Virus record (IMG/VR): IMGVR_UViG_3300016476_000183
Location: 1 to 55,931 of that record
Direction: 5' to 3' (one strand)
Length of the DNA stretch: 55,931 nt
DNA from: a virus
Lineage: Duplodnaviria > Caudoviricetes
The notes under the pieces are model-generated. The model searched no databases. It worked only from the letters and a program-made list of their open reading frames with translations, and had not been told where the DNA came from. Positions 1 to 55,073 of the stretch are shown here, one piece after another. Every line of letters begins with the position of its first letter. Within the stretch, counting starts at the first letter, position 1. Both the position numbers and the translations under genes were made by a program.

Positions 1-199
1 TGCGGGCAATCTCTGATGCCCACTGCCCACCACCTACACGGGGGATTGCGATCATAAGCAGCGCAGCCTCAAGCCTTTCGATGTAATCTGCGGCCTCTCC
101 GCAAAGCGGTTTCGTCGTGCTAACGGGTGTAAAATCTACAACCCGATAGTCCTTCTCGGCCCGCAGCCGATCAACCAGTGCCCTTGCTTTGTCAGTCAT
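1..199 (-). CDS. hypothetical protein, runs off the window start
   Basis: ATG at 199 behind GGAGAG; MTDKARALVDRLRAEKDY... stays open to position 1. Confidence 0.55.
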   Translation of the reverse strand, partial: MTDKARALVDRLRAEKDYRVVDFTPVSTTKPLCGEAADYIERLEAALLMIAIPRVGGGQWASEIAR

Positions 200-527
200 G
201 GCTCTCTCCTAGTGCTGCGCGGGCGCGTTCGCCGCCATCCCTATCCAGTGCATAGCGAGCATCGTCGCCTTCTCGGGTAATCTTGCGGCAGTCATTTGCC
301 TGCTTTTCATACCAGCCCAACGCCCCACGCAGCCGCTCGATCTCGCGGGCTTGGGTTTCGATTAGGTCGGCACATCGAATACGGTCATGCGGGTATTCAA
401 GCACCTGAAGGTTGCGCATCCGATAAACCAGCGCCTTTGCTTCGTCAGTCATTGCTTCCTCGTAAGTTTTGGCCAGCTTTGCGCATTCATCGAGCCATTC
501 GGCCCTTGTTAGTGGGGTAGCCATCAC
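192..527 (-). CDS. hypothetical phage protein
   Basis: ORF in tightly overlapping minus-strand operon. Confidence 0.65.
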   Translation of the reverse strand: MMATPLTRAEWLDECAKLAKTYEEAMTDEAKALVYRMRNLQVLEYPHDRIRCADLIETQAREIERLRGALGWYEKQANDCRKITREGDDARYALDRDGGERARAALGESHD

Positions 528-898
528 TCACCCTCCCACACAATGCGACCGCCACGGGCTTCGATGGCTGCGCGAAGGTCTGCTGCCATTTCCGCAGCGC
601 TGTGGTTGACGATGCCTCCTTTAATCAGCGCCTCAACCAGCGGATCGGGCTTGGCGATGATGAAGCGCCCCATGTATCTGCGGACAATAGAAGAACTGTC
701 GTCGTAAACGCATACCGCCAACTCCTCCACCGCATCGCTCACTTCCTGCCGGAAGGCTTCGTGCTGTTCTATGGCGCGGGCGTGGGCCTCAATAGACTGA
801 CGTAGGACGTTTTCCTCGGCCATAATGGCGTAGTCTTGCATCCGCCGCCCAGCGGCTGCCACCGCCTGCTCCAGTGCTTTCTTTTCGGTTTTAGTCAT
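524..898 (-). CDS. hypothetical phage protein
   Basis: 4-nt overlaps with both neighbours. Confidence 0.7.
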   Translation of the reverse strand: MTKTEKKALEQAVAAAGRRMQDYAIMAEENVLRQSIEAHARAIEQHEAFRQEVSDAVEELAVCVYDDSSSIVRRYMGRFIIAKPDPLVEALIKGGIVNHSAAEMAADLRAAIEARGGRIVWEGE

Positions 899-1092
899 AG
901 CACTTCTCCCGTCATGTACTTGTACAGGCGCTTCATTGCGGCCAAGTCCAGCGTGGCTTCTTCCCGGTCGTCGGCATGGGTCGTGCGGTATATCTCATCC
1001 TGCGCCCACGCCATGTGCTGACGTAGGAATGCGAGGATGATCTGGTCTGCCAGTTCATTGTTGATCGGCAGCAGCATGGGTTCTTTGGTCAT
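895..1092 (-). CDS. hypothetical phage protein
   Basis: ATGA overlap, GGAGG upstream. Confidence 0.65.
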   Translation of the reverse strand: MTKEPMLLPINNELADQIILAFLRQHMAWAQDEIYRTTHADDREEATLDLAAMKRLYKYMTGEVL

Positions 1093-1571
1093 CGTACCGC
1101 CTCCCTATATCCACCTTGATTGTTGATCGCCTGAGCTAGTCGTTCCGATCCACGGATCATTCCCTTGTACACAAACTTTTCCTTCTGGGTTCGCTCGTCT
1201 CTGACCGGCTTAGCCTTCATGAGTTTGTCCACCACATTCTCGGATACAGGCGAGACCTTGATCGCAGGGCTGTCAGCAATCTTGGCCACGTATTTCCTGA
1301 GTGCGGTAATCAACAAGCGAAACCCCGGCCTCTCGACTTCGTACAGCTTGGCCTGACGCACCCCGTGAAGGACTGACGTGTGATCTCGATTGCCTAGCTG
1401 GCGACCGATTTCCTTCAGGCCGTGACCATACTCATTACATACTGCGAACACGGCGAACCGAGCCGATGATACGTGGCGACGACGATTGTCCTCGTAGAAC
1501 TCTTCCACGGGGATGCGGGTGATCTCAGACACACACTCGACGATGGTGCGAACCATTACCTTAACTGTCAT
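1089..1571 (-). CDS. DnaA C-terminal (domain IV)-like helix-turn-helix protein
   Basis: LKEIGRQLGNRDHTSVLHGVR matches the DnaA domain IV signature IG..FG.RDHTTV.H; RBS AAGGAGAG. Confidence 0.8.
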   Translation of the reverse strand: MTVKVMVRTIVECVSEITRIPVEEFYEDNRRRHVSSARFAVFAVCNEYGHGLKEIGRQLGNRDHTSVLHGVRQAKLYEVERPGFRLLITALRKYVAKIADSPAIKVSPVSENVVDKLMKAKPVRDERTQKEKFVYKGMIRGSERLAQAINNQGGYREAVR

Positions 1572-1590
1572 TGGTCTCTCCTTGGTAGGG

Positions 1591-1718
1591 GTCGGGGCTA
1601 TTTAACGTCAGCGTGGTAACGTCACGCTCCCCGACAGGACGGCTTACTCTGATGGGGAAAGGTTAACCCACCCGTAAGCTGCCGGTGATACCTAGCGCCT
1701 CTCAACCGGCTTGGCGCA
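1591..1718 (-). ncRNA. candidate structured intergenic RNA (pseudoknot plus two stem-loop domains)
   Basis: Complementary pairs GTCGGGG/CCCCGAC, AGCGTG/CACGCT, GCTTAC/GTAAGC, GCCGGT/ACCGGC and crossing GCGCC/GGCGC within a 150-nt gap. Confidence 0.4.
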
Positions 1719-1723
1719 CCAAC

Positions 1724-2050
1724 TCAACCGAATAGCAGTTTGAGTTGGTCGTACAACTTGCGAGCTTCAGTGGCTGACATACTGATATCTCCTACCAGAA
1801 TAGTAACACCCTCGTTGCGAGGTTCTACTGGTGGGGCAGAGAAATCCACATAGTAGACGAACGGCTTCCTCCCAGTACCTACTCTTGATCCTCTAGCTTT
1901 TCTGCGCTGAATCTTCCCCTCACGATACAGGGTCGTCAACTCTTGTCGGATTTGTGCTGGGTTGCCTCGCACCTTACCAACGATATCCTTTGCTCTGACG
2001 GAGCCGGAAGTGTTCGAGATGATCTGGTATACTTGTTCGCGTACAGTCAT
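1724..2050 (-). CDS. winged-helix DNA-binding protein (putative)
   Basis: VRAKDIV...QIRQELTTLYREGKIQR wHTH-like pattern; RBS GGAGA. Confidence 0.6.
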   Translation of the reverse strand: MTVREQVYQIISNTSGSVRAKDIVGKVRGNPAQIRQELTTLYREGKIQRRKARGSRVGTGRKPFVYYVDFSAPPVEPRNEGVTILVGDISMSATEARKLYDQLKLLFG

Positions 2051-2061
2051 GGCTTGTCTCC

Positions 2062-3183
2062 TTACTTCTTCATCTTAACAACATCACCCCAAGGGGCATC
2101 CTCACGTCCGTTGGAAACCCAGAGAACTGGATACCCCGGCTGCGATCCGAAGTCGCTGCACCACAGGTCGGTCAGGACCACGCAAGCAGCAGGTTCGATG
2201 GCGTTCTTCTGAACGTACCGAAAGATGGGCGAGAACGCCGTGCCGCCGCCGCCGTGAGGGCGGATGTCAAGCTGGTCGTCAGGCTCGTAGCTCTCGTAGT
2301 GGCTGACCTCGCTGTCGAAATACACCACGTGAATCTTGGTGGGGCGGCAGTCCTCGTGGATGGCTGCGATCTCTGCTGCAAACTCGCTGATCTCACGGGC
2401 GCTGATGGAACCGGAGCAGTCTACTGCAACAACGATCTCACCCAGTGCTTCGCCAGACATGCTAGGCATGATGAGGTCGTGCGTCAGGAAGCGGCGGTTG
2501 GGACGAGCGTAGGTCAGATCGACCTTGGCCTTGGTTGTGAGGAAGTTGCGAAGGACAACGCGCCAGTCAACGGTAGGTGCCAGTGCCTCGTCAACCAGAC
2601 GGGACAGACCGGCAGACAATTTACCGGCAGCCTTGGCGACACGTGCAGCCTGAGCGATAGCTACACGCATCTCTGCCTCGGCTTGAGCGCGCTCGGACTC
2701 GTCACCCGGAGCATCCTCGCACAGGTCGATACCTGTACCGGGATAGCCGCCATCATCACCCTCGCAGTCATCGGGGAGCAGGGCATACACACCCTCGGTC
2801 GTACCACCACCGGCTGCCACGATTTGGGAGTCGATGAGCGCACCGTCTGGCAGCTTGCCGATACCGTCTGCTACGATCATGTCATTGATAACGTAATCAC
2901 CTGCGATGTTGAAGCGCTTGGGGTTGCGGTTGCCGCGCCGGAACGGGTGGTTGAAGATGCAGTGGCCGACCTCGTGACACAGCACAGCAATGGTGTTGTC
3001 GAGGGACATGCTGTCAACAAAGTCCGGGTTGTACAGGATACGCTTACCGTTGGTCGCCATGGTCGGGATGCTGGGGTCCTCGATGATCGGCAGGTTGCAC
3101 ACGATGGTGGCGAAGAACGGGTGGTACATTACCAGCTTGGCCTTGGCACGGGACAGCTTGGCTTCGGGGGTGAGGTCGGTCAT
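2062..3183 (-). CDS. metallopeptidase plus VWA domain protein (DUF2201-like)
   Basis: TMATNG, LCHEVGH (HExxH), NIAGDYVIN, MIDAS VDCSGS, GGGGTAF, VLTD. Confidence 0.9.
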   Translation of the reverse strand: MTDLTPEAKLSRAKAKLVMYHPFFATIVCNLPIIEDPSIPTMATNGKRILYNPDFVDSMSLDNTIAVLCHEVGHCIFNHPFRRGNRNPKRFNIAGDYVINDMIVADGIGKLPDGALIDSQIVAAGGGTTEGVYALLPDDCEGDDGGYPGTGIDLCEDAPGDESERAQAEAEMRVAIAQAARVAKAAGKLSAGLSRLVDEALAPTVDWRVVLRNFLTTKAKVDLTYARPNRRFLTHDLIMPSMSGEALGEIVVAVDCSGSISAREISEFAAEIAAIHEDCRPTKIHVVYFDSEVSHYESYEPDDQLDIRPHGGGGTAFSPIFRYVQKNAIEPAACVVLTDLWCSDFGSQPGYPVLWVSNGREDAPWGDVVKMKK

Positions 3184-3209
3184 GGTGGTCTCCTTGTCTT
3201 GTGGTCTGT

Positions 3210-3238
3210 AGTATAGGTGACACTGTGTGTTATGTCAA
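3210..3238 (-). promoter_or_regulatory. sigma70-type promoter
   Basis: TTGACA-17 nt-TATACT on the minus strand ahead of the VWA gene. Confidence 0.8.
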
Positions 3239-3478
3239 AGCGGCTCTCAACATGAGGTACGCTACCTTGGCTGCGTCTAGGTCCTTGAAGGGGCCAGCTA
3301 CTTTGGGAGGGTACAGGATTTCTCCATGGTGGTCCTCTCTCTTGACGATGGCCCAACGCTTTCGCCTTGAGTTGTGACGGTTAACCCGCTCTATCAGATA
3401 GACGACTGGTACCTTGCGTCCGATCCAGTACTGCTCGGTACCATCGGGGTGCGAGTTGTACAGCCACTCAGGCTCCAT
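3230..3478 (-). CDS. hypothetical protein (82 aa, MEPEWLYNSHPDG...)
   Basis: 3' part of the track ORF 3230..3799; ATG at 3478 overlaps the end of the upstream gene. Confidence 0.6.
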   Translation of the reverse strand: MEPEWLYNSHPDGTEQYWIGRKVPVVYLIERVNRHNSRRKRWAIVKREDHHGEILYPPKVAGPFKDLDAAKVAYLMLRAALT

Positions 3479-4319
3479 ACAGACCACCCATCTTGGCGAG
3501 GATGTCAGCCATCTGGTCGGACACTTCTTGGCGTACCTCAGGGTGCTTGCGGATATCTTCCGCATCTGTGGTGGCGAAGTAACCCTCCAGTTCCTGACGG
3601 ATTTCTTCCAGCTTGGGGTCGTCAGAGATGTTGAGCGATGGCAAGATGGCACACAGGTCCTTGGCGCTACCGACAAGGCTGTCATAGATACGGCCCTCGG
3701 GGTTACTGGTCTGGGTGTGAATGCGCTTGACCACATCGTGAACCCGCTGCCACGCAGCTTGCATAGCTTGGCTGACCTTCTCCGTAACATCCATCTCAAG
3801 ACGCTTGCGCAGCGAGTCCATCTGGTCGTCGGCCATATCTACACGCCAGTCCTTGGCGGCGGGCATGGGGTAGAACCCAACGTCCATGCGGAACTTGGAA
3901 CGGATGGTGTCCACTGCGGGGTAGTCCGACTCGTTGAACAGCGTACCGAGCAGGTGCTTGGCATCGTCAACAGATGTCTCATAGCTACGCAGGAAACGAT
4001 CCACTGCTTGGGTCCACTCACGCTTACGATCTGCCATGCGCTGAGCGAAGGTCAGGTAGCCCTCCGACTTGATGATCTGCATACCCTCCATCCACGGCAG
4101 GGAAAGCTGGTAGTATTCGTTGCGGATGGCGCTCGTCATCTTGTGGACACGATCAAGCTCGGTGTTGAGTGGGAGCAGTGACTTGTTGACACGGGCAGCA
4201 TCGACAGTGGTGCCGTGCTTGGCGTTGACTGCGGCGCTCTCCTTGCGGTCCAGCTTGCGGGCAGTCCACTGAGAGATGTTGAGGGTAACGAGCAGAGCGC
4301 GGTTGGTAAGTTCGGTCAT
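3468..4319 (-). CDS. helical phage protein, DUF3150-like, associated with the MoxR/VWA module
   Basis: LVTLNISQWTARKLD...FNESDYP pattern; strong RBS AAGGAGAC; lies between ATPase and VWA genes. Confidence 0.7.
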   Translation of the reverse strand: MTELTNRALLVTLNISQWTARKLDRKESAAVNAKHGTTVDAARVNKSLLPLNTELDRVHKMTSAIRNEYYQLSLPWMEGMQIIKSEGYLTFAQRMADRKREWTQAVDRFLRSYETSVDDAKHLLGTLFNESDYPAVDTIRSKFRMDVGFYPMPAAKDWRVDMADDQMDSLRKRLEMDVTEKVSQAMQAAWQRVHDVVKRIHTQTSNPEGRIYDSLVGSAKDLCAILPSLNISDDPKLEEIRQELEGYFATTDAEDIRKHPEVRQEVSDQMADILAKMGGLYGA

Positions 4320-4321
4320 GT

Positions 4322-4546
4322 TCAGTCTCCTTGATTTAATCGGATTAATTCGATTTCGGTGTCGTCGAAGGCGAAGGACTCGCCTGTAAGGAATGATACG
4401 ATGCAGTAAGGGTACTCTGAGTAAGGCGATCTTCTCTGTATCATTCCTTTTACTAACCCTACTGATCCAACGGGCGGGCCGTAAAAGTACGGGTTGGCTA
4501 CAACCCGTACTGCATCACCCGGATTAAAGGATGACGGCTTTGCCAT
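4322..4546 (-). CDS. small SH3/KOW-like beta-barrel protein (74 aa)
   Basis: MAKPSSFNPGDAVRVV...GSVGLV...IVSF...DTEIELI; start reassigned to ATG 4546. Confidence 0.6.
   Translation of the reverse strand: MAKPSSFNPGDAVRVVANPYFYGPPVGSVGLVKGMIQRRSPYSEYPYCIVSFLTGESFAFDDTEIELIRLNQGD
4335..4348. repeat. palindromic motif TTTAATCGGATTAA copy 1
   Basis: Exact motif just upstream of the RBS of gene 3468..4319. Confidence 0.95.
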
Positions 4547-5522
4547 CGGTCGTCGCCCAGTCGATGTATGCACGGGTGGACTGTACCTCTGGCACCTTAC
4601 GGATGCAGTCGAGGATCGCCATCGTAGCAAACTCGGAAGGCAAGCGGCGAACGAACGAGCAGATTGCTGGGAAGTTATCCACAGTGACTCGGCTGGCAAG
4701 TGCGCCGCACAGTGCGAAGCGAACACTGGGTTCTGCCGGAACCTCTGTACCGAGCGGGTCCATGATAACTGCATCGGGGTTGGGCAGCTTGCGGTACATG
4801 GTGAGGAACGCACAGAACTTGGTAGCCATCGCCTCACCCACGGTACCACGGAACATCTCGTACTCTGCCTCGGCAGGGATGTTGCCGATCACGGGGGACA
4901 CACCCTCGGTCCAGCCACGGAATGTTGCGTTGTGATCTTGGTTCGGGTCGAACGAGTAGAAGTCCTTGTCGAACCGGGAGAACGCCACGACCACGGGATG
5001 CACGTCATTCTTGAGCGCCCACTGACCCCAGTCGTCGATGGAGATGTCAGCCTCGATCTCGGTCATGCGGTCCTTGAGGTGGGTCAGCAGACGGTTGGCA
5101 CCAGCACGGTCAACGGTACGGTTGCCGGTACCTACGATCAGCCAGCCAGCCTTGAGTTTGCGACCGTGGATTTCACGGGACTGGATGATGTTGGCCCAGC
5201 CCTTCTGTGCGGGACCGTCAGCTTGGCCAAGCTCGTCGGCAATCAGGATGCCGTGGTCAGGCCAGTGCGAACCTTCGAGGGGGAAGCGATCATTGAGCAG
5301 GTAGGTCAGGCCATCCTTGTCTGCGTTGGGGAACGGAACCCCGAAGTCATCGACCGGCATGGTCGGGACGTGCGACTTGATGCACCCGATGCCACGCTGA
5401 GCAGCGACCTGCTCGGGGATGGAGGTCTTGGCGGTACCCGGAGGACCCGAGATGTACAGGGCGCGGAGGTTGCCAGCATCGAGCAGAGCGTTGAGGGTAC
5501 GAGCGATAAGAGTCGGTTTCAT
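4524..5522 (-). CDS. MoxR/dynein-like AAA+ ATPase
   Basis: Walker A GPPGTAKT, Walker B ILIADE, VGTGNR sensor, ATFRGW. Confidence 0.9.
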   Translation of the reverse strand: MKPTLIARTLNALLDAGNLRALYISGPPGTAKTSIPEQVAAQRGIGCIKSHVPTMPVDDFGVPFPNADKDGLTYLLNDRFPLEGSHWPDHGILIADELGQADGPAQKGWANIIQSREIHGRKLKAGWLIVGTGNRTVDRAGANRLLTHLKDRMTEIEADISIDDWGQWALKNDVHPVVVAFSRFDKDFYSFDPNQDHNATFRGWTEGVSPVIGNIPAEAEYEMFRGTVGEAMATKFCAFLTMYRKLPNPDAVIMDPLGTEVPAEPSVRFALCGALASRVTVDNFPAICSFVRRLPSEFATMAILDCIRKVPEVQSTRAYIDWATTDGKAVIL

Positions 5523-5540
5523 AGTCAGTCTCCTTGTTGA

Positions 5541-5555
5541 TTTAATCGGATTAAA
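5541..5555. repeat. palindromic motif copy 2
   Basis: TTTAATCGGATTAAA upstream of the ATPase RBS. Confidence 0.95.
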
Positions 5556-5594
5556 TGGTCGTCCGGTTGGCCCGGAACTTGATCTTGTCTACGT

Positions 5595-5636
5595 ATCTTA
5601 CGAGTATCCGGTATTTATGTCAAACAGAGCTACACC
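5595..5636 (-). promoter_or_regulatory. sigma70-type promoter with upstream GGTGTAGC box
   Basis: GGTGTAGC-5 nt-TTGACA-17 nt-TAAGAT. Confidence 0.75.
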
Positions 5637-5839
5637 TTTACGATACGGAACCCCCCCTCAGGAAAAGTCTTGAACGGTATGCGCGCCATGTTCTTGGCCA
5701 GCGTTATCTCCAAGTGATCCGGGCGAAGCTCCGTCACCCACCCGCTGTCACCAATGTTCACAGTCACCTGTCCACAGTTGTACGATCCCCACTCGGTGGC
5801 ACGGACAACTTCCACCACGCTGCCGATTTCAACAGACAT
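5630..5839 (-). CDS. small SH3-like protein
   Basis: VEIGSVVEVV...IGDSGWVTEL; RBS GGAGG. Confidence 0.6.
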   Translation of the reverse strand: MSVEIGSVVEVVRATEWGSYNCGQVTVNIGDSGWVTELRPDHLEITLAKNMARIPFKTFPEGGFRIVKV

Positions 5840-6014
5840 CTTTTCCTCCGTGCTTAACTGCCCTCACTTGGTCCTTGCACTCACGCTCACGGATATCGTT
5901 GATGATCTTCTGGCGCGGCGGCATCTTGCGAACGATAAAGCCCATGCTGCTCGTGTCCACAACGGTATGAGTAACACGCTTGGCATACGGGTTGCGTACT
6001 GTGTGTGCCATCAT
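5829..6014 (-). CDS. hypothetical protein
   Basis: Overlapping operon ORF with GGAGG. Confidence 0.55.
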   Translation of the reverse strand: MMAHTVRNPYAKRVTHTVVDTSSMGFIVRKMPPRQKIINDIRERECKDQVRAVKHGGKDVC

Positions 6015-6205
6015 TCATCCTCCGCTGCCTGACTTCCAGCTAGTTGGTACAGTGCCGACATCTCCTCACCGATAAAGTGCGCCATGGATTTCAGGGCGGG
6101 CACGGATTTTATGGCGGGATGTTCTTCGATAAACTGCTCCCACATCTCTACCATCATGGACACGCGATCCATTGCTTCGTGGCGATGCCATTTGTCTACA
6201 CGCAT
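6011..6205 (-). CDS. hypothetical protein
   Basis: TAATG overlap, GGAGG upstream. Confidence 0.6.
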   Translation of the reverse strand: MRVDKWHRHEAMDRVSMMVEMWEQFIEEHPAIKSVPALKSMAHFIGEEMSALYQLAGSQAAEDE

Positions 6206-6648
6206 TACTTGTCCTCCAGCTTGATAAGGTCACGGGGCCACACTTCGAGAAGCTCGCCGGTCATCAGTCGCACAGCCACAGTATCTCGTATGTCGCCATA
6301 CGCTCGGCCCCTGACCACGTCATCATCCCACTCTACAACTACGCCAAGTGTGTCGGGTGTTATGTCGGGCATATCGTCTGGGTGTATCAGCTCGTCGTAC
6401 TTACGCATGTCCGGCTGGAACTTCACCATGTTGCCACGCTCGAAATCCTCGGACCGCAACGCCCACCTGTGGGGGTAATACGGGACATTCACATTGCGAC
6501 CATCATCTCCGCAATGACTACAGTACGCCAGATCGTCGTAATGATCGTAATCATACCTTTGCTCGCGAACATCCCAGTACGCGGTGACGCTACTAAATGA
6601 TGTGCTGTTGCTACCGCAGTCGGCGCAAACAATGTCCACTTTATCCAT
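6205..6648 (-). CDS. zinc-ribbon plus SH3-like protein
   Basis: CADC...CSHC N-terminus; FERGNMVKF...TLGVVVE...VWPRDL C-terminus. Confidence 0.65.
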   Translation of the reverse strand: MDKVDIVCADCGSNSTSFSSVTAYWDVREQRYDYDHYDDLAYCSHCGDDGRNVNVPYYPHRWALRSEDFERGNMVKFQPDMRKYDELIHPDDMPDITPDTLGVVVEWDDDVVRGRAYGDIRDTVAVRLMTGELLEVWPRDLIKLEDK

Positions 6649-6664
6649 AGTGCTATCCTTTTGA

Positions 6665-6678
6665 TTTAATCGGATTAA
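6665..6678. repeat. palindromic motif copy 3
   Basis: Overlaps the TAA of 6675..7295 and precedes the RBS of 6205..6648. Confidence 0.95.
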
Positions 6679-7295
6679 TACTTGTACTCTACTTCTGCCT
6701 CACGAAGCTGGTCGTGCAGTTCCTTTGGCACGTGGTCACTCATGCCATTCTCGAACGGGTCACTCCCATAGAATCCCCAGCACGAGTCAGTCTCGACCCA
6801 CTCACCGGCATCGCACTCCTCGCAAGCACAGGCCCCAGTCCACTCCTCGATCACGAACCCATACACGTCACCATCTGCCCACTGCTTAAAGGTCTCGATG
6901 CTACCAGCCATGGCCTCTGCTGCACGGTCCCATGGGGTGCCGACATACTTACATAGTTCGGGGGTGGTATGCGCTATGTACTCGTTATGCTGTGTCCTAA
7001 ACACCTCCACGATAAGTTCGTCCTTGACTGCTTCGAGCCATGTGTTGCGGAAGTCCTCGTCATCCCGCAGTCGATCCTCCGAGTCGAGGATTCTGTCCAG
7101 TGTGTTGTGGCCAGCGACAGAGGCCATCTCCTCCATGGCGCGCCAGCCCTTGGTTCGCACAATGAGGTCTGCAATCTGGCTGTTGGCTGACTGGTCCCAC
7201 CTACCGGAGGCATTAATCTCGCACATGTCGTCCCAATCACGAGGGTCCTCCGCACAAGAGTCGTGGATGATGCGGACACGAAGGGTCTTGCTCAC
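6675..7295 (-). CDS. acidic hypothetical phage protein
   Basis: EDPRDWD...WADGDVYGFVIE...DSCWGFYG pattern. Confidence 0.75.
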   Translation of the reverse strand: MSKTLRVRIIHDSCAEDPRDWDDMCEINASGRWDQSANSQIADLIVRTKGWRAMEEMASVAGHNTLDRILDSEDRLRDDEDFRNTWLEAVKDELIVEVFRTQHNEYIAHTTPELCKYVGTPWDRAAEAMAGSIETFKQWADGDVYGFVIEEWTGACACEECDAGEWVETDSCWGFYGSDPFENGMSDHVPKELHDQLREAEVEYKY

Positions 7296-7453
7296 AGTTC
7301 GATCTCCCGTTCTACACGCATGACTTCGATCAGGCGAACCTTGATGCTCAGACGCTTCTCGATGGCGCGCACCTCAGTCTTGGCACGGTCGATATTGTCG
7401 AATGCAAACAATGGTTTGTTGCGCAGGTTGCGGATTTCGTAGGTCGAGTTCAT
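7292..7453 (-). CDS. hypothetical protein (53 aa, not in ORF track)
   Basis: GGAGACTGAC-ATG; MNSTYEIRNLRNKPLFAF...EIEL*; GTGA overlap. Confidence 0.7.
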   Translation of the reverse strand: MNSTYEIRNLRNKPLFAFDNIDRAKTEVRAIEKRLSIKVRLIEVMRVEREIEL

Positions 7454-7464
7454 GTCAGTCTCCA

Positions 7465-7478
7465 TTTAATCGGATTAA
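7465..7478. repeat. palindromic motif copy 4
   Basis: Overlaps the TAA of 7475..7825 and abuts RBS GGAGAC. Confidence 0.95.
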
Positions 7479-7825
7479 TTGCCGAGAGCGGCGTGTTCTA
7501 TCTCACGCATGGCGAACTTGTTGGGTCCCAGCTTGGCCAGCACTTCCATCTGACTGCACGACAGGTGCAATACCTCGGTATACGGGTGCGCCTTGCCTTG
7601 GTGGTTTGATGTGGTGCGGCTTACCTTCTCCCGGTTGGCGTACCACTCTCCTGTGTTGCGGTCGCAGACATACATCGGGAAATGCTCCCCGTAAGAATAG
7701 ACCGCGTACCACTTGTCCGTGTCCGAGGCATAGTTGCGCCCGAAGATGGTATGGTTGTTGGTAACAAAGTCCCTGCACTTCTGGACAAGCGAGCGAACGT
7801 CTGCGTTGGATACACCTTTAATCAT
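7475..7825 (-). CDS. hypothetical phage protein
   Basis: YAVYSYGEHFP...SRTTSNHQ motif; start reassigned to ATG 7825 (GAGGTG RBS). Confidence 0.75.
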   Translation of the reverse strand: MIKGVSNADVRSLVQKCRDFVTNNHTIFGRNYASDTDKWYAVYSYGEHFPMYVCDRNTGEWYANREKVSRTTSNHQGKAHPYTEVLHLSCSQMEVLAKLGPNKFAMREIEHAALGN

Positions 7826-7833
7826 GTCACACC

Positions 7834-8091
7834 TCACGAATGAAAGCCGAAGTGGTCGTCGTGCCATACGGCACCGATCACATAGCGGCGGGTATAGTCG
7901 CGCTCCTGATTGAAATAGACCGCCATCATTTCATACTCGTCACCGGAAATGGTGATCTCGCATATCGGGTAGCCGACAGGCGACCATGTGGACAGGTAGC
8001 CGATAGCTTCGTAGACCTTGCGGCCATCAGTGTTCTCGATCAGGCCCTGCAATGCGGACGGGCCGTACAGATGCTTAACAATACGTTCCAT
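7834..8091 (-). CDS. hypothetical protein
   Basis: RBS AGGAGACTGACC; ends ...FGFHS. Confidence 0.7.
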   Translation of the reverse strand: MERIVKHLYGPSALQGLIENTDGRKVYEAIGYLSTWSPVGYPICEITISGDEYEMMAVYFNQERDYTRRYVIGAVWHDDHFGFHS

Positions 8092-8106
8092 GGTCAGTCT
8101 CCTAAA

Positions 8107-8121
8107 TTTAATCGGATTAAA
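8107..8121. repeat. palindromic motif copy 5
   Basis: Overlaps the TAA of 8117..8287 and precedes an RBS. Confidence 0.95.
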
Positions 8122-8287
8122 TGTCGTACTTCAGGATGATCGCAGTCTCGTCGTCGAGGTACGTCTTATGGAACGTACGAGCAGACATAGGCTCACCTGC
8201 ATATCCACGGGTACCTGTGATGGGGTACGTCTTGCGCATGTGGCGCATCCAGTCGAACAGATGCTCGTCGAAGAAACCCTTGGTCAT
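8117..8287 (-). CDS. hypothetical protein (56 aa)
   Basis: GGAGACTGAC-ATG at 8287; first gene after the promoter at 8369-8410. Confidence 0.65.
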   Translation of the reverse strand: MTKGFFDEHLFDWMRHMRKTYPITGTRGYAGEPMSARTFHKTYLDDETAIILKYDI

Positions 8288-8298
8288 GTCAGTCTCCA

Positions 8299-8313
8299 TT
8301 TAATCGGATTAAA
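8299..8313. repeat. palindromic motif copy 6
   Basis: TTTAATCGGATTAAA abutting an RBS. Confidence 0.95.
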
Positions 8314-8368
8314 TCCGGTCCGTCCGGTGGACCCCTGCGGTCCGAGGTAATCTGTAAATTGTCTTTAC

Positions 8369-8410
8369 AGACTAGCATATAAACATGTTTATGTCAACTC
8401 GGGCTACACC
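8369..8410 (-). promoter_or_regulatory. sigma70-type promoter with upstream GGTGTAGC box
   Basis: GGTGTAGC-5 nt-TTGACA-17 nt-TAGTCT. Confidence 0.75.
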
Positions 8411-8425
8411 TCGTGAGCCGCAGAC

Positions 8426-8453
8426 AAAAAGAAACCCGCCTGTTAGGGCGGGT
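8426..8453 (-). terminator. intrinsic terminator
   Basis: ACCCGCC stem followed by TTTCTTTTT on the minus strand, right after gene 8456. Confidence 0.8.
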
Positions 8454-8455
8454 CG

Positions 8456-8674
8456 TTAGATGGGTAGAAAGAAACTTCTCGGTAACTGTATCGGGTGGCT
8501 CGGGTTCTTGAATAGTGTGACCGTTAGGGAGTTGTCGAAGTGTTTTGATGGTTTGCCAAGTTCTGTGACTACGCCTGTGTCGCCATGCTTAAGTTCCAGC
8601 GCCCCATCATAGAGGCCGAATGGTCCCACGTACTTGACTAGATCACCGATCATGTATGGACCTGATCTCTCCAT
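8456..8674 (-). CDS. small SH3-like protein
   Basis: MIGDLVKYVG...HGDTGVVTEL; start reassigned to 8674 (GGGGAG RBS). Confidence 0.65.
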   Translation of the reverse strand: MERSGPYMIGDLVKYVGPFGLYDGALELKHGDTGVVTELGKPSKHFDNSLTVTLFKNPSHPIQLPRSFFLPI

Positions 8675-8891
8675 AGTATGCTCCCCACTCTTTCCCCGGC
8701 CACCCGAAGAACTCGATGACGTACTCATAGTTTTTCCACTTGCCATAGCCCACCACTGCTTTGACCACGGCAGTGTCTCCTTCGACGGGATGCTCCCCAA
8801 CCCCCCACTCGAACTCTGTCCTAAACACATCCACCCCGTAACCTGTCAGGTAAACCACGTCTCCTACTTCGAAGTCTGGTTTGTCGCTCAT
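8643..8891 (-). CDS. small SH3-like protein
   Basis: FEVGDVVYL...EGDTAVV...YVIEFF; start reassigned to 8891. Confidence 0.65.
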   Translation of the reverse strand: MSDKPDFEVGDVVYLTGYGVDVFRTEFEWGVGEHPVEGDTAVVKAVVGYGKWKNYEYVIEFFGWPGKEWGAYYGEIRSIHDR

Positions 8892-9172
8892 TTCACTTCC
8901 TCCAACCATGGGCTGCTCAGGTAGTGCAGCTTCTCAGGACAGGTGAAGAACCTCACCCCATACAGGTCGATGATCTTGTACCCCTCGTCGTTTTTACCGG
9001 CTGTCTCGATGATGCCCGTGTCGCCGTTGGATACTGGTATGTCTGTCCAGTTGCTCAGCCACCGGGCTGGCTCCCTGTACTTGACGAGTGTGCCTTTCTT
9101 AAAGTTCCTCCTGAGAGGCTCAAGCTCCGGCCATATGTCGTCGAGTAGGTTTGCTTGCTTGGGCTTAGTCAT
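8888..9172 (-). CDS. small SH3-like protein
   Basis: FKKGTLVKY...NGDTGII...GVRFF...WLEEV; start reassigned to 9172. Confidence 0.65.
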   Translation of the reverse strand: MTKPKQANLLDDIWPELEPLRRNFKKGTLVKYREPARWLSNWTDIPVSNGDTGIIETAGKNDEGYKIIDLYGVRFFTCPEKLHYLSSPWLEEVK

Positions 9173-9428
9173 CGACCACCTCCAGCCACATATCACCCAA
9201 CCAAATCTCCTCGTCCGGCCAACGGAAGAACCTGATTCGCTTCAATGGTGCGACATCATCACCTCCGCCAAGTATTTCCTCGACTACACCCACGTCACCA
9301 AACTCAATCGAGCAATCGGCCCACGGTGGCTTAGGCCCCGACCATCGGTGCATCTGCTCAGCAACCACTGGCATCACAGTCCCCGGTTTGACGGGTACAC
9401 ACCTCACGACTGTGCCTACCTCAATCAT
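9165..9428 (-). CDS. small SH3-like protein
   Basis: IEVGTVVRC...FGDVGVV...RIRFF...WLEVV. Confidence 0.65.
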   Translation of the reverse strand: MIEVGTVVRCVPVKPGTVMPVVAEQMHRWSGPKPPWADCSIEFGDVGVVEEILGGGDDVAPLKRIRFFRWPDEEIWLGDMWLEVVDD

Positions 9429-9603
9429 CGGGGTTGTCCTCCTCGCGGTTGGCCAGCATCTCCGCTGTCACTCGCTCGATCATGCGCTGCATCAGTGACC
9501 CGGTATCCCACGCCCCGCTGAGTATTGCACTCTTGTGGAACGGTGCTGTCCATAGCTCCGCCAGTCGCTGGCGCGCTATCACGACGATCTTATCAGTATC
9601 CAT
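9421..9603 (-). CDS. hypothetical protein
   Basis: GAGGAGG RBS; AILSGAWD motif. Confidence 0.6.
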   Translation of the reverse strand: MDTDKIVVIARQRLAELWTAPFHKSAILSGAWDTGSLMQRMIERVTAEMLANREEDNPDD

Positions 9604-9613
9604 CACAACCTCC

Positions 9614-10414
9614 TCACGCCATGGCATCTATGCTTGCGTAGGCATCAGCCAACCATTCCCCGAAGTTCGTCCCCATAGGTACGACCCCGGACCTCATCTT
9701 GATGAACGCCTCGATCTGGCGCTGCTTCCACCCTCGCGAGCGATACTCGGCAAGCTGCTCCGCACTTGGCACAAACTCACCCGTGGGTATCTCCCCCATC
9801 TGGTAGACCATTTTCCCATCCCGCACTCGCACCATCACAGGCTCGTAGTCCATGGGGTTGTCCACCACTTCATACTCCCCGGCCAGCCACCGCTGCACCA
9901 GTTCCTCTTGGTTGAGTACCTTCATGGGATACTTGTCTTGCGACACGACCCCTTCAGGCGTGGCAAAACTTATGGACTCCACCTTCTCCCCGGTATCCAC
10001 GTCCTTGAACCTCGCCATGACGCTAGGCAGTATGGCCGTGCCAGTCTTGTTCTCATAAAAGAAAACCTTGCACTGGTTCACGACCACACCCTGCTCGTTG
10101 TACGGGTCCTTGAGCCTCACCCCATCCATGATGACACGCTGGTCGGCATCCTCCGGGATGAGCTTGTTCTTGCGCTTCTTGAGTACGATCCCCTTGGTCT
10201 TGGGTGCATCCGAGTCTGTCCCGAATGTGTTGGTGGTATGTGGTTTGATCTCGTCAGGGGATTTAATCGGATTAAATGTCCCATCCCCCAGCGACATCAA
10301 GACATAGGACAACATGTCCTCGCTACTGCGGAACGATGCCTTGGCCGCACGGCGCAGATTCCTCAACGCCTCCACTGGCAACGTAAACGTCACCTTCATA
10401 GTATCACCAGCCAT
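9614..10414 (-). CDS. protein with N-terminal ribbon-helix-helix-like domain
   Basis: MKVTFTLPVEALRNLRRAAKASFRSSEDMLSYVL is RHH/Arc-like; the remainder is unknown. Confidence 0.6.
   Translation of the reverse strand: MAGDTMKVTFTLPVEALRNLRRAAKASFRSSEDMLSYVLMSLGDGTFNPIKSPDEIKPHTTNTFGTDSDAPKTKGIVLKKRKNKLIPEDADQRVIMDGVRLKDPYNEQGVVVNQCKVFFYENKTGTAILPSVMARFKDVDTGEKVESISFATPEGVVSQDKYPMKVLNQEELVQRWLAGEYEVVDNPMDYEPVMVRVRDGKMVYQMGEIPTGEFVPSAEQLAEYRSRGWKQRQIEAFIKMRSGVVPMGTNFGEWLADAYASIDAMA
10262..10276. repeat. palindromic motif copy 7 (intragenic)
   Basis: ATTTAATCGGATTAAAT inside 9614..10414. Confidence 0.95.
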
Positions 10415-10635
10415 CAGTCGTCATCCAACTCTGCCAGCACATCATCCAGCGGGCGGGCGCGAGAACCAAAGGCCATACCGCTCCGCTTGGCACTGTGACC
10501 CACAGCAGGATGTGAGAAGTTTTCCGATAGATAATAGGACAAGAAGTTGCTGATCGAACGCAGATCGTCCTTGGCGGCTGCCGCCACAGCGTCATAAACT
10601 TCGTCGGGAACAAGAATCTGGATACGGCGTGTCAT
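10414..10635 (-). CDS. ribbon-helix-helix (Arc/CopG-like) protein
   Basis: MTRRIQILVPDEVYDAVAAAAKDDLRSISNFLSYYL. Confidence 0.7.
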   Translation of the reverse strand: MTRRIQILVPDEVYDAVAAAAKDDLRSISNFLSYYLSENFSHPAVGHSAKRSGMAFGSRARPLDDVLAELDDD

Positions 10636-11439
10636 AAAATCCTACTATGTTTGAGTAAGATCGAGTCGTTGTAACGTCGATCACACTCTACTTAAACCGG
10701 GAGAGACCTACTGACAATGCACCGAATGCTACTCTCCTGTGAGTTGTTGTTGCGGATTCTCGGAGACTTGTGACGGTGTTTTGTCGCTACATTGATGGTA
10801 TGCGTGGGTAGCATGTGGGTGTGGTTTGGTGTGATGTGATGGCGGTTTGAGTATGTTAGAGTAGCTATGAGCTACTACAGGTGAGTATGTGTTGGTGGGA
10901 TGTTGCTTCGATGTTACTCAAATGTCGAGGTAAATGTAAGGTCGATGTAAGTGCAAGTGATTGGAATCATTGATTAATGCACAAATGTAAGCGGTTTGGG
11001 GTACCAGAGGGGTTTGGGGGCAGAAAAAATTTTCTCCGCGCAGAGGGGCCGAAAAAAAATTCGCTCGGGGAACCAGCTACCTTTTTCACTTACATTTATA
11101 CATTTGAACATTTGCACTACACTAACACAACAACACACACCCCCACCGTGGCACTAAGTACCTGTATTTCCTTGGTTCCTAACGTAACCCCGGTTTACGT
11201 AAACGTGCTTGTTGCGATGTTTTCGCAAATGTAAGGTGTTTACGTAGCCTTGCAAGGGAATGAAATTAAACGATTTCGTTTACGTAGCCCTGATCGGGCT
11301 AAAAGTTTACAGAAAACGCCCCTCTGGCACCCCCTCCGCAGCCCATATTCGCATCGCGACACCATATCCGTTTACGTGGATGTGTGCGTGTGTACGGGTG
11401 AAACGTCACATCGTAATGTGATGAGTATGACTGCCGTCA

Positions 11440-11454
11440 TTTAATCGGATTAAA
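11440..11454. repeat. palindromic motif copy 8
   Basis: TTTAATCGGATTAAA in the non-coding region. Confidence 0.95.
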
Positions 11455-11493
11455 TACTATACAAGACACACGAATGAGTAGGATTGACGCGGA

Positions 11494-11508
11494 TTTAATC
11501 GGATTAAA
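11494..11508. repeat. palindromic motif copy 9
   Basis: TTTAATCGGATTAAA 54 nt after copy 8. Confidence 0.95.
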
Positions 11509-11631
11509 TGAAAAAACGTGTGTTTTGAGTGGTTTGCAGAAAGTGCTTGCGCTAGGTGCAGCACGTGCTACGTAAAGGGGGCCGGGGCGAGCTATGCCCT
11601 AGGCAATCAACACTAGCAGAAAGACAATCCA

Positions 11632-12318
11632 ATGACTGTTTCCAAGAACAATCCCGCTGCAATCGCAAAGATTAACGCTGCTAAGGTAAGCGCCGAACGC
11701 AAGGTGCACCTTGAGTCGTACCGGGTGACGATCGGGCAGGCGGTAATTGCTGCAAACAAGGCCCATGGTGCAGTGACTAGCACCATGATTGCCGCAACCT
11801 TGGAGCTTGCCAGCAACAAAGTATTCAAGGGCGCAAAGCTTGCAGATTTTGACCGTATGGTGCGCCCGGTACTGAAGGCCGCTATTGAGCCGCTGGAGAC
11901 TGTAGGTGCTGGCAGCAAGGCCGGATACCTCACGGGGTGCCGCAATCTGTTTCTTGCCAAGGCCAATGGCATTGCGCCCGGCACGGTCAATCTCACGCAA
12001 GCAACGTGGAACGCCGGTATTGTTTCCAAGCTCCAAGCCAAGGGGGTTGTGCCCGCCGCCGTTGAAGGGGTGAAGGGCAAGGGCCGCCCTAAGGGCACTA
12101 CAGGGGGCAAGGCGAACCCCGGTGCAGGGCGCACCCCTGCACAACAGGACAGTGCAGCTAGCAAGGGGGCCGCAAGCTCCCCTAAGGTGGTCACGGTGCA
12201 GGCATTGCAGGACATGCTACGTCTCGCAGGCATTGGAGAGCATAGCGAGCAATTGGCCCACCTTATCCTGAACGAGCGCCCTGTAGTGATTAAGTGGTTG
12301 AATAGTACCGCCGACTAG
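11632..12318 (+). CDS. solitary Ala/Lys/Gly-rich basic hypothetical protein
   Basis: 228-aa ORF followed by strong terminators. Confidence 0.75.
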   Translation: MTVSKNNPAAIAKINAAKVSAERKVHLESYRVTIGQAVIAANKAHGAVTSTMIAATLELASNKVFKGAKLADFDRMVRPVLKAAIEPLETVGAGSKAGYLTGCRNLFLAKANGIAPGTVNLTQATWNAGIVSKLQAKGVVPAAVEGVKGKGRPKGTTGGKANPGAGRTPAQQDSAASKGAASSPKVVTVQALQDMLRLAGIGEHSEQLAHLILNERPVVIKWLNSTAD

Positions 12319-12338
12319 TCTGGACTAGTCTGGACCAC

Positions 12339-12373
12339 GGGAGGCTAGCCAATTGGCTAGCCTCCCTTTTTTT
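12339..12373 (+). terminator. intrinsic terminator
   Basis: 28-bp perfect palindrome GGGAGGCTAGCCAATTGGCTAGCCTCCC plus T7. Confidence 0.9.
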
Positions 12374-12391
12374 GTGCCTATTCAATACGAT

Positions 12392-12427
12392 AGCGTGATA
12401 CGCCGCGATGCGTGTCACGCTTTTTTT
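12392..12427 (+). terminator. second tandem terminator
   Basis: GCGTGATACGC...GCGTGTCACGC stem followed by a T run. Confidence 0.7.
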
Positions 12428-19985: not shown

Positions 19986-20024
19986 GGTAGGGGGAGTGGT
20001 TGGACTCCCCCTACCTTATTTTTT
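19986..20024 (+). terminator. intrinsic terminator after the capsid gene
   Basis: GGTAGGGGGAGT/ACTCCCCCTACC stem plus TTATTTTTT. Confidence 0.85.
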
Positions 20025-20038
20025 AAGTCGGAGCGCAA

Positions 20039-20728: not shown

Positions 20729-21369
20729 GCAGTGTTTCATACGAGACATTCTTTCCCGAGGTTGTGCCGTACGTACACGACGTTCCCGATCTCGTGGCGA
20801 CGAATGCCATTCGCAACGCATGTATCGAGTTCTGCGAGAAGTCCGATTACATCATCTACACGCACGACCCGATTACGATCTTGCCGCGAGTATCCGCGTA
20901 CCAGCTGGACCTGCCGTGCGGGACCACAGTATCTCGCGTGATTGCAAGCTGGGTAGGTAATCTTCCGATTACGTTTAAGAGTCAGGAAGACCTTCAGCGC
21001 ATCTACCCGCTTGATTGGCGGCAGATGGGTGGTCGCCCGCAGTACATCACACAAGACGTACCGGATGAAGTCATCGTGGCCCCGTTCAGTGATTACGAGA
21101 TGGACGATGGTCTTAAGCTGATCGTCGCGTTGAAGCCTACTCGTTCCTCCACCACCGTGGACAAACTGATTTATGAGCGGTGGGCTGAGCACATCGGGTT
21201 CGGCGCTCGCGCCCGACTGTACGACACACCCAATCAGCCGTACTACGATCCAGCCCAAGCGGTTAAGTTCCGCACGTGGTTCGAGTCAGCTATCGGTGAG
21301 GCCAAGATGGAGCGTAATCGCGGCCTTACGCGCAATGTAACGCGGGTCCGCCCGCCCCGATTTGTTTGA
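20725..21369 (+). CDS. second adaptor-like virion protein
   Basis: AIRNACIEFCEKS, LKPTR, I..GA.ARL. Confidence 0.7.
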   Translation: MSSVSYETFFPEVVPYVHDVPDLVATNAIRNACIEFCEKSDYIIYTHDPITILPRVSAYQLDLPCGTTVSRVIASWVGNLPITFKSQEDLQRIYPLDWRQMGGRPQYITQDVPDEVIVAPFSDYEMDDGLKLIVALKPTRSSTTVDKLIYERWAEHIGFGARARLYDTPNQPYYDPAQAVKFRTWFESAIGEAKMERNRGLTRNVTRVRPPRFV

Positions 21370-21377
21370 GGTAGGCT

Positions 21378-45732: not shown

Positions 45733-46023
45733 TCAGACCTCAGAGTCGCTGTTGCTATTTACCGCTTCTTCTCCAAGGTGCTTGGCGATCACACGATCAA
45801 CGTAGCTACCCCGTTCGCGAGCCTTGATATCTCGTGGAACCGGAAGTTCCCCAGTCTCTACTGCCGCATCAATTGCGTCAAGTAGTTTATCCACGCGATC
45901 CTTGAGGTAGCGGTGCGGTTCGTTGTGTCCGTTGAACCATGAACTGACAGTCACACGGTGGACACCCAAATGCTTGGCGATGTCGTTGGGTAGAACCCCA
46001 GCGTCCTTAGCCACATCAAACAT
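45733..46023 (-). CDS. helix-turn-helix DNA-binding protein
   Basis: IAKHLGVHRVTVSSWFNG. Confidence 0.8.
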   Translation of the reverse strand: MFDVAKDAGVLPNDIAKHLGVHRVTVSSWFNGHNEPHRYLKDRVDKLLDAIDAAVETGELPVPRDIKARERGSYVDRVIAKHLGEEAVNSNSDSEV

Positions 46024-50213: not shown

Positions 50214-50214
50214 G

Positions 50215-54826: not shown

Positions 54827-55073
54827 TCTCTTCCTCCGGTAATACTTCCACAGTGACTTGGCAGCGCCAGCCGTCTGAGAACTTAACGCTTCGCTCAATA
54901 CGCTGGATGCCATCTTGTGCGGACAGGTCTGCACACAGGTTCAACAAGATGTCGTTGGTGACATCTTTAATCGGATTAATTGGGTGGCGGTATTTCTCGT
55001 GCGTCAACCAGATCGAACCGTCCTCAGGCTTGGTCCGCAGGTGGAAGTGTTTGGGGTTTAGGACAACCTTCAT
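54804..55073 (-). CDS. hypothetical protein
   Basis: ATGA overlap with the glutaredoxin gene. Confidence 0.6.
   Translation of the reverse strand: MKVVLNPKHFHLRTKPEDGSIWLTHEKYRHPINPIKDVTNDILLNLCADLSAQDGIQRIERSVKFSDGWRCQVTVEVLPEEENDVPEDI
54966..54979. repeat. palindromic motif copy 10 (intragenic)
   Basis: TTTAATCGGATTAA. Confidence 0.9.

Follow-up and report, generated by a model that had tools for sequence, protein, structure and literature searches.

What is the task of a short perfect palindrome that recurs, always in one orientation, at the junctions of early genes in an uncultured phage? The question is raised by the virus record IMGVR_UViG_3300016476_000183 (Duplodnaviria; Caudoviricetes), whose entire 55931 bp were analysed and are referred to below as the window, with a completeness of 97% according to CheckV. 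It is a podophage genome of ~56 kb, its structural block being podophage-like by PHROGs and Pfam, and it is divided into a late block on the plus strand (11632-42610), encoding terminase, portal, capsid, tail fibres, internal virion proteins and a 2201-aa polyvalent protein, and a minus-strand part (1-10635 and 42722-55931) with the genes for early functions and replication, among them primase, helicase, DNA polymerase, a PD-(D/E)XK exonuclease, a VRR-NUC protein and a trio of AAA-ATPase, DUF3150 and DUF2201-VWA genes. The palindrome, TTTAATCGGATTAA, is present in ten copies. The answer favoured here, with slightly better than even confidence, is that these copies are double-stranded DNA operators, or a roadblock array, for a phage-encoded sequence-specific regulator.

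An exact search for TTTAATCGGATTAA returned ten copies in the window, at 4335, 5541, 6665, 7465, 8107, 8299, 10262, 11440, 11494 and 54966, all on the plus strand, against none in 100 shuffles and an expectation of 0. An earlier note, made from the letters of this DNA, had listed the same ten co-oriented copies with an identical centre base and had found none in the late block, and each of these statements was borne out. The complete element is a 17-bp palindrome of 8-1-8 architecture whose sole asymmetry is the centre base, a plus-strand G in 10 of 10 copies; in the orientation of the genes, on the minus strand, it reads ATTTAATC-C-GATTAAAT. Allowing up to two mismatches of 14 revealed no degenerate copies beyond the same ten sites read on the opposite strand, and allowing up to four mismatches of the 17-mer none beyond one offset overlap at 11483. 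The 31 kb of the late block (11632-42610) contain no copy of TTTAATCGGATTAA.

On the gene strand, six of the ten copies are followed by a Shine-Dalgarno (SD) sequence and a start codon, with a gap of 1-11 nt between motif and SD, the latter being GGAGACTGA at 4335, 5541, 7465, 8107 and 8299 and AAGGAT at 6665. The earlier note had counted six copies near a ribosome-binding site, five of them of this type; the count holds and, since the genes lie on the minus strand, the motif is upstream of the SD, the typical junction reading palindrome, then GGAGAC..ATG. Read on the minus strand, the copy at 4335..4348 lies 16 nt upstream of the DUF3150 gene start (4319) and is followed by GGAGACTGA, and that at 5541..5554 lies in the 5' untranslated region (UTR) of the AAA-ATPase gene, between a promoter (5623-5595) and the SD. 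The copy at 6665..6678 contains the stop codon of the open reading frame (ORF) 6675-7295 and lies 17 nt upstream of the start of gene 6205-6648, the copy at 7465..7478 contains the stop of ORF 7475-7867 and lies upstream of gene 7292-7465, and the copy at 8107..8120 contains the stop of ORF 8117-8299, which agrees with the three copies said by the note to supply the stop of the upstream gene. The copy at 8299..8312 is situated in a 5' UTR behind the promoter 8397-8369, upstream of a 60-aa gene. A pair (11440..11453 and 11494..11507) occupies the ORF-poor region between the early arm and a 228-aa gene.

Three copies had been assigned to coding sequence, which holds in part, as two of them fall within plausible ORFs. 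The copy at 10262..10275 is inside ORF 9614-10414 (FNPIK), its ortholog in two close relatives lying upstream of the homologous gene, and the outlying copy at 54966..54979, in the replication arm, is inside the 89-aa ORF 54804-55073 (INPIK) and is not conserved in one of these relatives, G1. The ORF claimed for the copy at 4335 (LIRLN) is doubtful; it runs across a 172-nt insert, between the ATPase stop and this copy, that looks non-coding.

The close relatives are two IMG/VR records, G1 (56018 bp) and G2 (28168 bp, partial), with an ATPase 89% identical and alignable DNA 68-85% identical to the window. A motif scan of related phages had been proposed by the earlier note, and conservation is what was seen: G1 carries eight and G2 seven perfect 14-nt copies, all in the same orientation. 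Across the three genomes 25 of 25 copies are identical over 14 nt, while their flanks either share 68-85% identity or cannot be aligned, the latter being frequent upstream of the G1 and G2 copies. Such identity amid diverged flanks points to strong purifying selection or homogenisation. The pair 11440/11494 is kept in G1 and G2 (spacing 65) and in the more distant record G3 (spacing 99). An exact scan of IMG/VR for the 14-mer gave, among the matches listed, mostly chance singles, with several copies only in known relatives.

The named phages are all distant: the portal is 38% identical to that of Rhizobium phage RHph_TM3_14A and 26-30% identical to those of HMO-2011-type Pelagibacter, Roseobacter and Puniceispirillum phages, and a nucleotide search of GenBank phages with positions 4000-12000 and 20000-40000 of the window gave zero matches. 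The clade is related to the abundant HMO-2011-type aquatic podophages, and portions of the window sequence are present in freshwater, wastewater, groundwater and estuary runs.

The conservation was followed further in 20 additional related records, whole or partial, with GC contents of 44-67% among the relatives. Nine of the 20 possess their own, different repeated palindrome, restricted to the early arm and located mostly just 5' of an SD. These are GGTTATCCCGGGATAACC in G3 (12 copies, all within 38405-54577 of 57023), TATTAACT-NN-AGTTAATA in G4 (8 copies), CTTAACC-G-GGTTAAG in G9 (4 copies), GGTTAAAC-N-GTTTAACC in G10 (9 copies), ATTTACC-N-GGTAAAT in G11 (10 copies), GATTGCAC-N-GTGCAATC in G14 (11 copies), AATTGCC-N4-GGCAATT in G18 (11 copies) and AATTGCT-N4-AGCAATT in G19 (6 copies). 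G6 shows two copies of a palindrome, and G15 two copies with one imperfect copy at the ATPase junction. No repeated palindrome was found in G5, G7, G8, G12, G13, G16, G17, G20 and G22, several of which are partial records. The orientation of the centre base in G10, G11 and G14 is biased, not uniform.

The junctions themselves are shared among these genomes. A local palindrome stands at the upstream junction of the AAA-ATPase gene in 11 genomes (the window, G1, G2, G3, G4, G6, G10, G11, G14, G18 and G19), none being present there in G5, G7, G16 and G17 and an imperfect one in G15, and at the DUF3150 junction in seven (the window, G1, G2, G3, G4, G11 and G14). At orthologous junctions the site has been replaced by lineage-specific sequence. 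The places are therefore ancestral, with the site sequence replaced in every copy of each lineage, for which a lineage-specific trans factor, or homogenisation, would be required. In G9, one palindrome copy (~11135-11200) is found inside a gene whose product contains ..LRWGDIDWD.., presumably resembling tyrosine integrases, and the G9 lineage may be temperate.

The position of the copies relative to promoters adds to this picture. Three sigma70-like promoters on the minus strand, at 8397-8369, 5623-5595 and 3238-3210, share the extended -35 element TTGACATAA; they are the only perfect matches to TTGACA-N17-TAnnnT in the genome, and all lie in the early arm. The promoter at 5595..5623 (TTGACATAA-N-TAAGAT) is conserved in the window, G1, G2 and G4, the last keeping it with a palindrome of its own, and that at 8369..8397 (TTGACA-N14-TGC-TAGTCT), directly after a terminator (8454-8433), is invariant in the window, G1 and G2. 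Downstream of both, the order is a small GC hairpin, the palindrome (~+35 to +60), the SD and ATG. The order of promoter, hairpin, palindrome and SD is also observed in G3, G6, G10, G11, G14, G15, G18 and G19, and in G4 and G11 an additional copy lies 9-15 nt upstream of a TTGACA box. Against an expectation of 5.7, a standard promoter scan reported four sites, and the conserved promoter 8397-8369 was not among them. A palindrome just downstream of a promoter occupies a position where a bound protein would block elongation.

In most lineages the 5' UTR of the ATPase gene contains a GC-rich hairpin beside the palindrome. The sequence of this hairpin varies by genome and by site, unlike the palindrome, which is identical at all sites within a genome, and the difference fits recognition by a sequence-specific protein, not structure alone. 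RNA folding of three window copies with their flanks left the palindrome hairpin outside the minimum free energy (MFE) structure in 3 of 3 cases, with z values of -1.08, +0.95 and +0.18 that are within the shuffles. Across lineages the predicted hairpin energies range from about -1.4 to -14.6 kcal/mol, the hairpin being stable only in G14 (-14.6), so the predicted stability of an RNA hairpin is not conserved.

Among the three functions offered by the earlier note, an operator or stoperator network is the best supported, in view of the invariance within and replacement between lineages, the placement between promoter and SD, and the palindromes found upstream of a phage helix-turn-helix (HTH) gene; the mRNA hairpin is weakened by the folding results, and the recombination site holds as a pattern only. 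Under the operator reading, the regulator would bind the 8-1-8 site at the pair in the regulatory region, just past the internal sigma70-type promoters and in the gaps between early genes. Once bound, it would lower or block the passage of host RNA polymerase as a stoperator-like roadblock, acting by repression rather than activation. The whole early arm would in this way come under roadblock control, probably leading to early shut-off in the lytic cycle. The direct repeat of 14-30 nt formed by palindrome and SD would also serve as a substrate for recombination.

The candidate for the regulator is a 96-aa Xre/LacI-like HTH protein (45733..46023, minus strand), which alone among the predicted DNA-binding proteins is conserved across the clade. 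Its PHROGs matches are labelled 'DNA binding protein' and 'transcriptional regulator', and its Pfam matches fall below the cut-offs (LacI PF00356, 20.6 against 27 bits; HTH_3, 20.1 against 23; HTH_23 as well). When 13 homologues were combined into a profile, the match was to the LacI-type DNA-binding domain of FruR/Cra (1uxc, E 3e-5), and in the confident AlphaFold2 model (pLDDT 88.8) an HTH core of three helices precedes two long ones. A homodimer prediction, run without controls, gave a score of 0.00. A profile search for further HTH-bearing loci from a 5-row alignment found only eight. The gene is present in 10 of the 10 array-bearing genomes whose record covers the region and also in G6 and G15, and it is absent from G7 and G17. 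In G10, G14, G18 and G19, a local palindrome lies 18-36 nt upstream of it.

In a small sample of 13-16 HTH sequences, with phylogeny uncontrolled, variants of the presumed recognition helix sort by half-site core. HRVTVS goes with TTAATC in the window and G1, NRITVS with TTAAC in G4 and G9, GRV(T/S)CS with ATTGC in G14, G18 and G19, SRITAS with TTAAAC in G10, SRVTAS with TTATCC in G3 and TRATAS with TTTACC in G11. G14, G18 and G19 are one another's closest relatives. The half-sites may resemble the operators of Cra and PurR. The 96-aa protein is the best candidate regulator, a plausible one with a circumstantial link to the sites.

Other binders were considered. The earlier note had proposed ribbon-helix-helix (RHH) proteins, which are unlikely, as the RHH protein at 10414-10635 has no BLAST match in G1 and G2, both of which share the identical motif; G1 has a different RHH-like ORF in that place. 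A DnaA_C-domain protein (1089-1571) was rejected as well, being just 29-30% identical in G1 and G2. Directly upstream of the HTH gene lies a tRNA-Thr(tgt) gene (46041-46116, minus strand), the sole Rfam match in the entire window. Before the tRNA (~46125-46170, minus strand) two small hairpins stand in tandem, each with a GANAGA loop and with stems that covary in the window, G4, G8 and G9; they have no Rfam match and may be an RNA signal.

Several observations weigh against the operator reading and against this protein as its regulator. In the window, G1 and G2 the centre base faces one way in 25 of 25 copies, a uniformity that suits a single-strand or RNA element, or copies derived from one another by duplication, and of which a symmetric dimer on duplex DNA has no need. 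The spacing of the half-site cores differs by 1-3 bp among lineages, and the proximity of motif and SD in most copies would suit translational control too. No convincing main early promoter was found beside the pair 11440/11494. As for the HTH protein, a Foldseek search against the PDB gave no match at E <= 0.001, its weak top hits belonging to the Xre family. The gene also occurs in G5, G8 and G12, where no repeated palindrome was seen (G8 and G12 are partial), and no copy stands upstream of it in the window, G1, G3, G4, G9 and G11. The basis of the link is co-occurrence, and shared ancestry can lead to the same pattern. Clustering of all ORFs by presence and absence over nine array-bearing and five array-less genomes yielded no array-specific family, the top families being antisense shadow ORFs.

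The copies also mark where genes come and go. In gene orientation, with m for the motif, the cassettes are ordered A-m-X-m-Y-m-Z in the window, A-m-Y-m-Z in G1 and A-m-Z in G2, where X is the 60-aa gene 8117-8299, Y is 7834-8091, separated from X by the copy at 8107 and bounded at its right edge by that at 7465, and Z starts at 7465. The presence and absence of X and Y among the three genomes is exactly copy-to-copy, so the edges of gene gain and loss coincide with the motif, as the earlier note had suggested they might in relatives. Among the ends of homology blocks of at least 100 nt, 28 of 64 fall within 20 nt of a copy (random placement in 10000 trials, mean 2.6 and maximum 11), a count that is inflated because BLAST block ends are drawn to any conserved island; the nested indels of X, Y and Z are independent of it. 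Contigs from another metagenome run switch content at two motif edges, 5560 and 6664, and an RNA-library contig loses homology to the window at 10278; all four runs laid out here consist of contigs, from which RNA ends, strand and expression level are unreadable. A joint 4348->7832 was not used, having just 23 nt on one side and possibly being a cross-match between copies.

A further breakpoint is visible behind the ATPase gene. Its stop codon lies in one full motif in G1 and G2, versus a half-motif remnant, TTTAATCCG, in the window (4520..4528, minus strand), next to which comes the 172-nt insert; an 8-bp TTAATCCG stands on both sides of the insert, and the full copy 4348-4335 lies beyond it. 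The insert (4349-4528, minus strand) opens with a terminator-like hairpin, GTACGGGTTG..CCAACCCGTAC, followed by TTTTAC. From these patterns the sites appear to act also as joints for cassette exchange, whole genes being present or absent exactly copy-to-copy because palindrome and SD are repeated in direct orientation. The recombination role looks like a by-product of the repeats, as with the promoter-early stem-loop (PeSL) cassettes of T4-type phages, because no recombinase was found and the sites are fixed before core genes.

The cassettes could alternatively be the purpose of the element, if it were a dedicated recombination site at which a site-specific or structure-specific system takes up and excises cassettes of one gene each, much as an integron does. 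The nested cassettes, each bounded by copies, the block ends, the changes of contig content at 5560, 6664 and 10278, and the half motif with its flanking TTAATCCG, which puts the breakpoint at the motif centre, all suit this proposal. It is nevertheless unlikely. Neither PHROGs nor Pfam detected an integrase or recombinase in the window, whose nuclease-type proteins are the PD-(D/E)XK exonuclease, the VRR-NUC protein and an endonuclease VII; copies are fixed before the core ATPase and DUF3150 genes in all lineages and downstream of promoters; the block-end count overstates the association; and several genes differ between relatives without the motif at their edges, two additional small ones within 5554-6665 among them. 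A combined proposal, that palindrome and SD form a portable gene-junction module through which the regulator and its operators take up new early genes, place these under early control and trade them among phages by crossovers inside the palindrome, would make regulation and cassette exchange one system, an operator-based analogue of attC that works without a dedicated integrase, with the half motif at 4520-4528 as an example; this too is judged improbable. Turning from DNA to RNA, the element might be a hairpin or single-stranded operator beside the SD that controls translation, processing or stability of the early cistrons, comparable to an operator of the RegA or coat-protein type or to an RNase site, which is possible without being probable. 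It would explain why an SD follows 6 of 10 copies after 1-11 nt and why all 25 copies in the window, G1 and G2 face transcription in one orientation with a C at the centre on the mRNA strand; moreover, the arms stay complementary across all lineages, a G14 junction variant (31640) retains a U-G pair on the sense strand, and metatranscriptome contigs cover and bridge the copy at 4335, where DNA carry-over is possible. Against it, the hairpin is missing from the MFE structures of the window and stable only in G14, a pure structure needs no identical sequence in each copy while the adjoining 5'-UTR hairpins vary freely, other imperfect copies (G10 54574 and a G3 variant) produce C-A mismatches on the sense strand, and no RNA-binding protein was recognised in the window by PHROGs or Pfam.

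Two more proposals are very unlikely. Each copy might be a promoter element that starts a transcript with a short leader, its AT-rich arms serving as -10 boxes or forming the target of a polymerase that the phage directs, since the left arm has TTTAAT with 5 of 6 matches to TATAAT and an RNA-library contig begins at 11454, right after the copy 11440-11453, and reaches the terminators at 12390. Contigs cannot show RNA starts, however, and no conserved -35 or TG lies upstream, the palindromes of other lineages are unlike -10 boxes, two copies have separate good promoters upstream, the distance between motif and SD varies from 1 to 11 nt, and no RNA polymerase gene was found, the 2201-aa protein having no match to a solved RNA polymerase. 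The second would make the palindrome the recognition site of a borrowed host regulator or nucleoid protein, for which it could be said that relatives with different palindromes also have unlike GC contents (44-67%), and their hosts may differ accordingly. In bacterial genomes, however, no regulon of the 17-mer was found: at least 120 stretches are listed, as single copies save one contig with two, and these matches are scattered over unrelated, mostly AT-rich taxa, with no many-copy genome among the matches listed; four lineages, besides, have a palindrome upstream of the phage's own HTH gene. The operators of a phage-encoded regulator therefore remain the favoured reading, at the confidence given at the outset.

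How the array relates to known regulatory sites depends on the property compared. The stoperators of Cluster A mycobacteriophages, bound by the L5 gp71-type repressor, are asymmetric 13-bp sites that are bound by monomers, occur in both arms and act in prophage immunity; many co-oriented copies lie in short intergenic gaps, they are lineage-specific and co-evolve with the phage regulator, and a block of elongation has been proposed for them. The copies in the window are likewise co-oriented (10 of 10), with six at SD-adjacent gene junctions, but the site is an 8-1-8 palindrome instead of an asymmetric sequence of ~13 bp, copies are lacking in the late arm (11632-42610), and no integrase was found in the window by PHROGs or Pfam. 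Operators of the LacI/FruR and Xre types are palindromes of similar size, with A/T-rich half-sites around a central C/G, and are bound by HTH dimers; PurR and CcpA are examples of regulators whose operators, when placed beyond the start site, work as roadblocks. Unlike the LacI/FruR regulators, the phage protein consists of the HTH part and two long helices and has no sugar-binding core. An integron-like system differs in its site-specific recombinase, of which none was found in the window by PHROGs or Pfam. In N4, hairpin promoters are used by a virion RNA polymerase and transcription starts at a fixed 11 nt from the loop centre. This model was rejected, because the 2201-aa protein has no RNA polymerase match in Pfam or the PDB, its nearest Atlas clusters being LPD39 polyvalent proteins, and a start placed by the N4 rule would land inside the SD at some copies.

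The closest published case is that of the Cluster O mycobacteriophages, where a 17-bp dyad-symmetric sequence, 5'-TGTTCGGNNNCCGAACA, has more than 30 copies, a dimeric DNA-binding protein is predicted by the authors, and the phages are said to be not obviously temperate (Cresawn et al. 2015, PMC4351075). The article also mentions one Corndog gene flanked by a 17-bp direct repeat that is single in relatives (PMC4351075). The length of 17 bp, the invariant arms around a variable or short centre and the many intergenic copies are common to both (PMC4351075), and, as in Cluster O, invariant inverted arms were found here in many copies at the same places in related genomes. The Cluster O sites are, as described there, genome-wide, not tied to translation starts and of meaningless orientation (PMC4351075), unlike the copies in the window, which keep to the early arm and to one orientation and in most cases adjoin an SD; host phylum, phage family and sequence differ as well.

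Two other published elements share part of the layout. In Cluster K, the start-associated sequence (SAS) is a motif at translation starts, with 17-bp inverted repeats, the extended SAS (ESAS), just upstream and co-oriented, conserved at the same gene families across genomes (Pope et al. 2011, PMC3203893). The motif of the window is similarly linked to translation starts and conserved at given gene families, but the ESAS is described as having imperfect arms of 17 bp each, 4-13 bp apart, and the SAS as asymmetric (PMC3203893), unlike the one compact perfect 8-1-8 palindrome. The PeSL of T4-type phages, a strong sigma70 promoter plus terminator hairpin, lies between non-essential early genes, and recombination between copies inserts, deletes or replaces genes (Arbiol et al. 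2010, PMC2839356). Mini-circles formed when neighbouring copies recombine are a further mark of PeSL cassettes. The gene indels of the window, G1 and G2 are likewise bounded by the repeat, as with cassettes X and Y, but this repeat is a 17-bp palindrome with an SD, its promoters are separate and upstream of just two copies, and the palindrome is not terminator-like. By analogy, the array would thus be a kind of regulatory site with published analogues in Cluster O and Cluster K, occurring in a group related to HMO-2011, and the 'undescribed system' of the earlier note is overstated; a literature search found no description of such sites for HMO-2011-type or related phages.

Some neighbouring features were noted along the way. 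The ~800 nt of ORF-poor sequence between the palindrome pair and the first early gene (10640-11440) contain repeated ACGTAAAC and CTTACAT boxes, the equivalent place in G4 having CTGACAAATCAA seven times; an origin, or another set of sites for a regulator, may lie in this stretch. On the other side of the pair, the 228-aa gene (11632-12318, plus strand) forms a unit of its own, with two strong terminators at its end (12339-12421, plus strand), and is covered by the RNA-library contig 11454-12390. The family of its product was not recognised; the middle part is rich in Lys, Gly and Pro and contains KGRPKG, which resembles an AT-hook. At the outlying copy, the minus-strand ORFs 54804-55073 and 54641-54934 overlap by 130 nt in different frames, with the palindrome in the former, 89-aa ORF, whose ATG overlaps the stop of a glutaredoxin gene. 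The trio at 2062-5522 (minus strand), composed of a MoxR-like AAA ATPase, DUF3150 and a DUF2201 metallopeptidase/VWA-like protein, is kept in nearly all relatives; its third gene is labelled 'HNH endonuclease' by PHROGs, a label that the Pfam domains do not back. In the 2201-aa virion protein (36005-42610, plus strand), the C-terminal third matches the giant 'DarB-like/PLxRFG' proteins of many podophages, and the N-terminal 1450 aa resemble LPD39-type polyvalent proteins.

The early regions of uncultured phages consist mostly of genes and control of no known kind, and a lineage-specific site fixed at gene junctions offers a direct handle for finding regulators. As a mark of every early transcription or translation unit, such a site would delimit early genes in metagenomic phages, and units bounded by the motif would explain how small accessory genes are swapped as wholes. 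If the 96-aa HTH protein is indeed the binder, the pairs of recognition helix and half-site would constitute a natural series for the evolution of DNA-recognition specificity.

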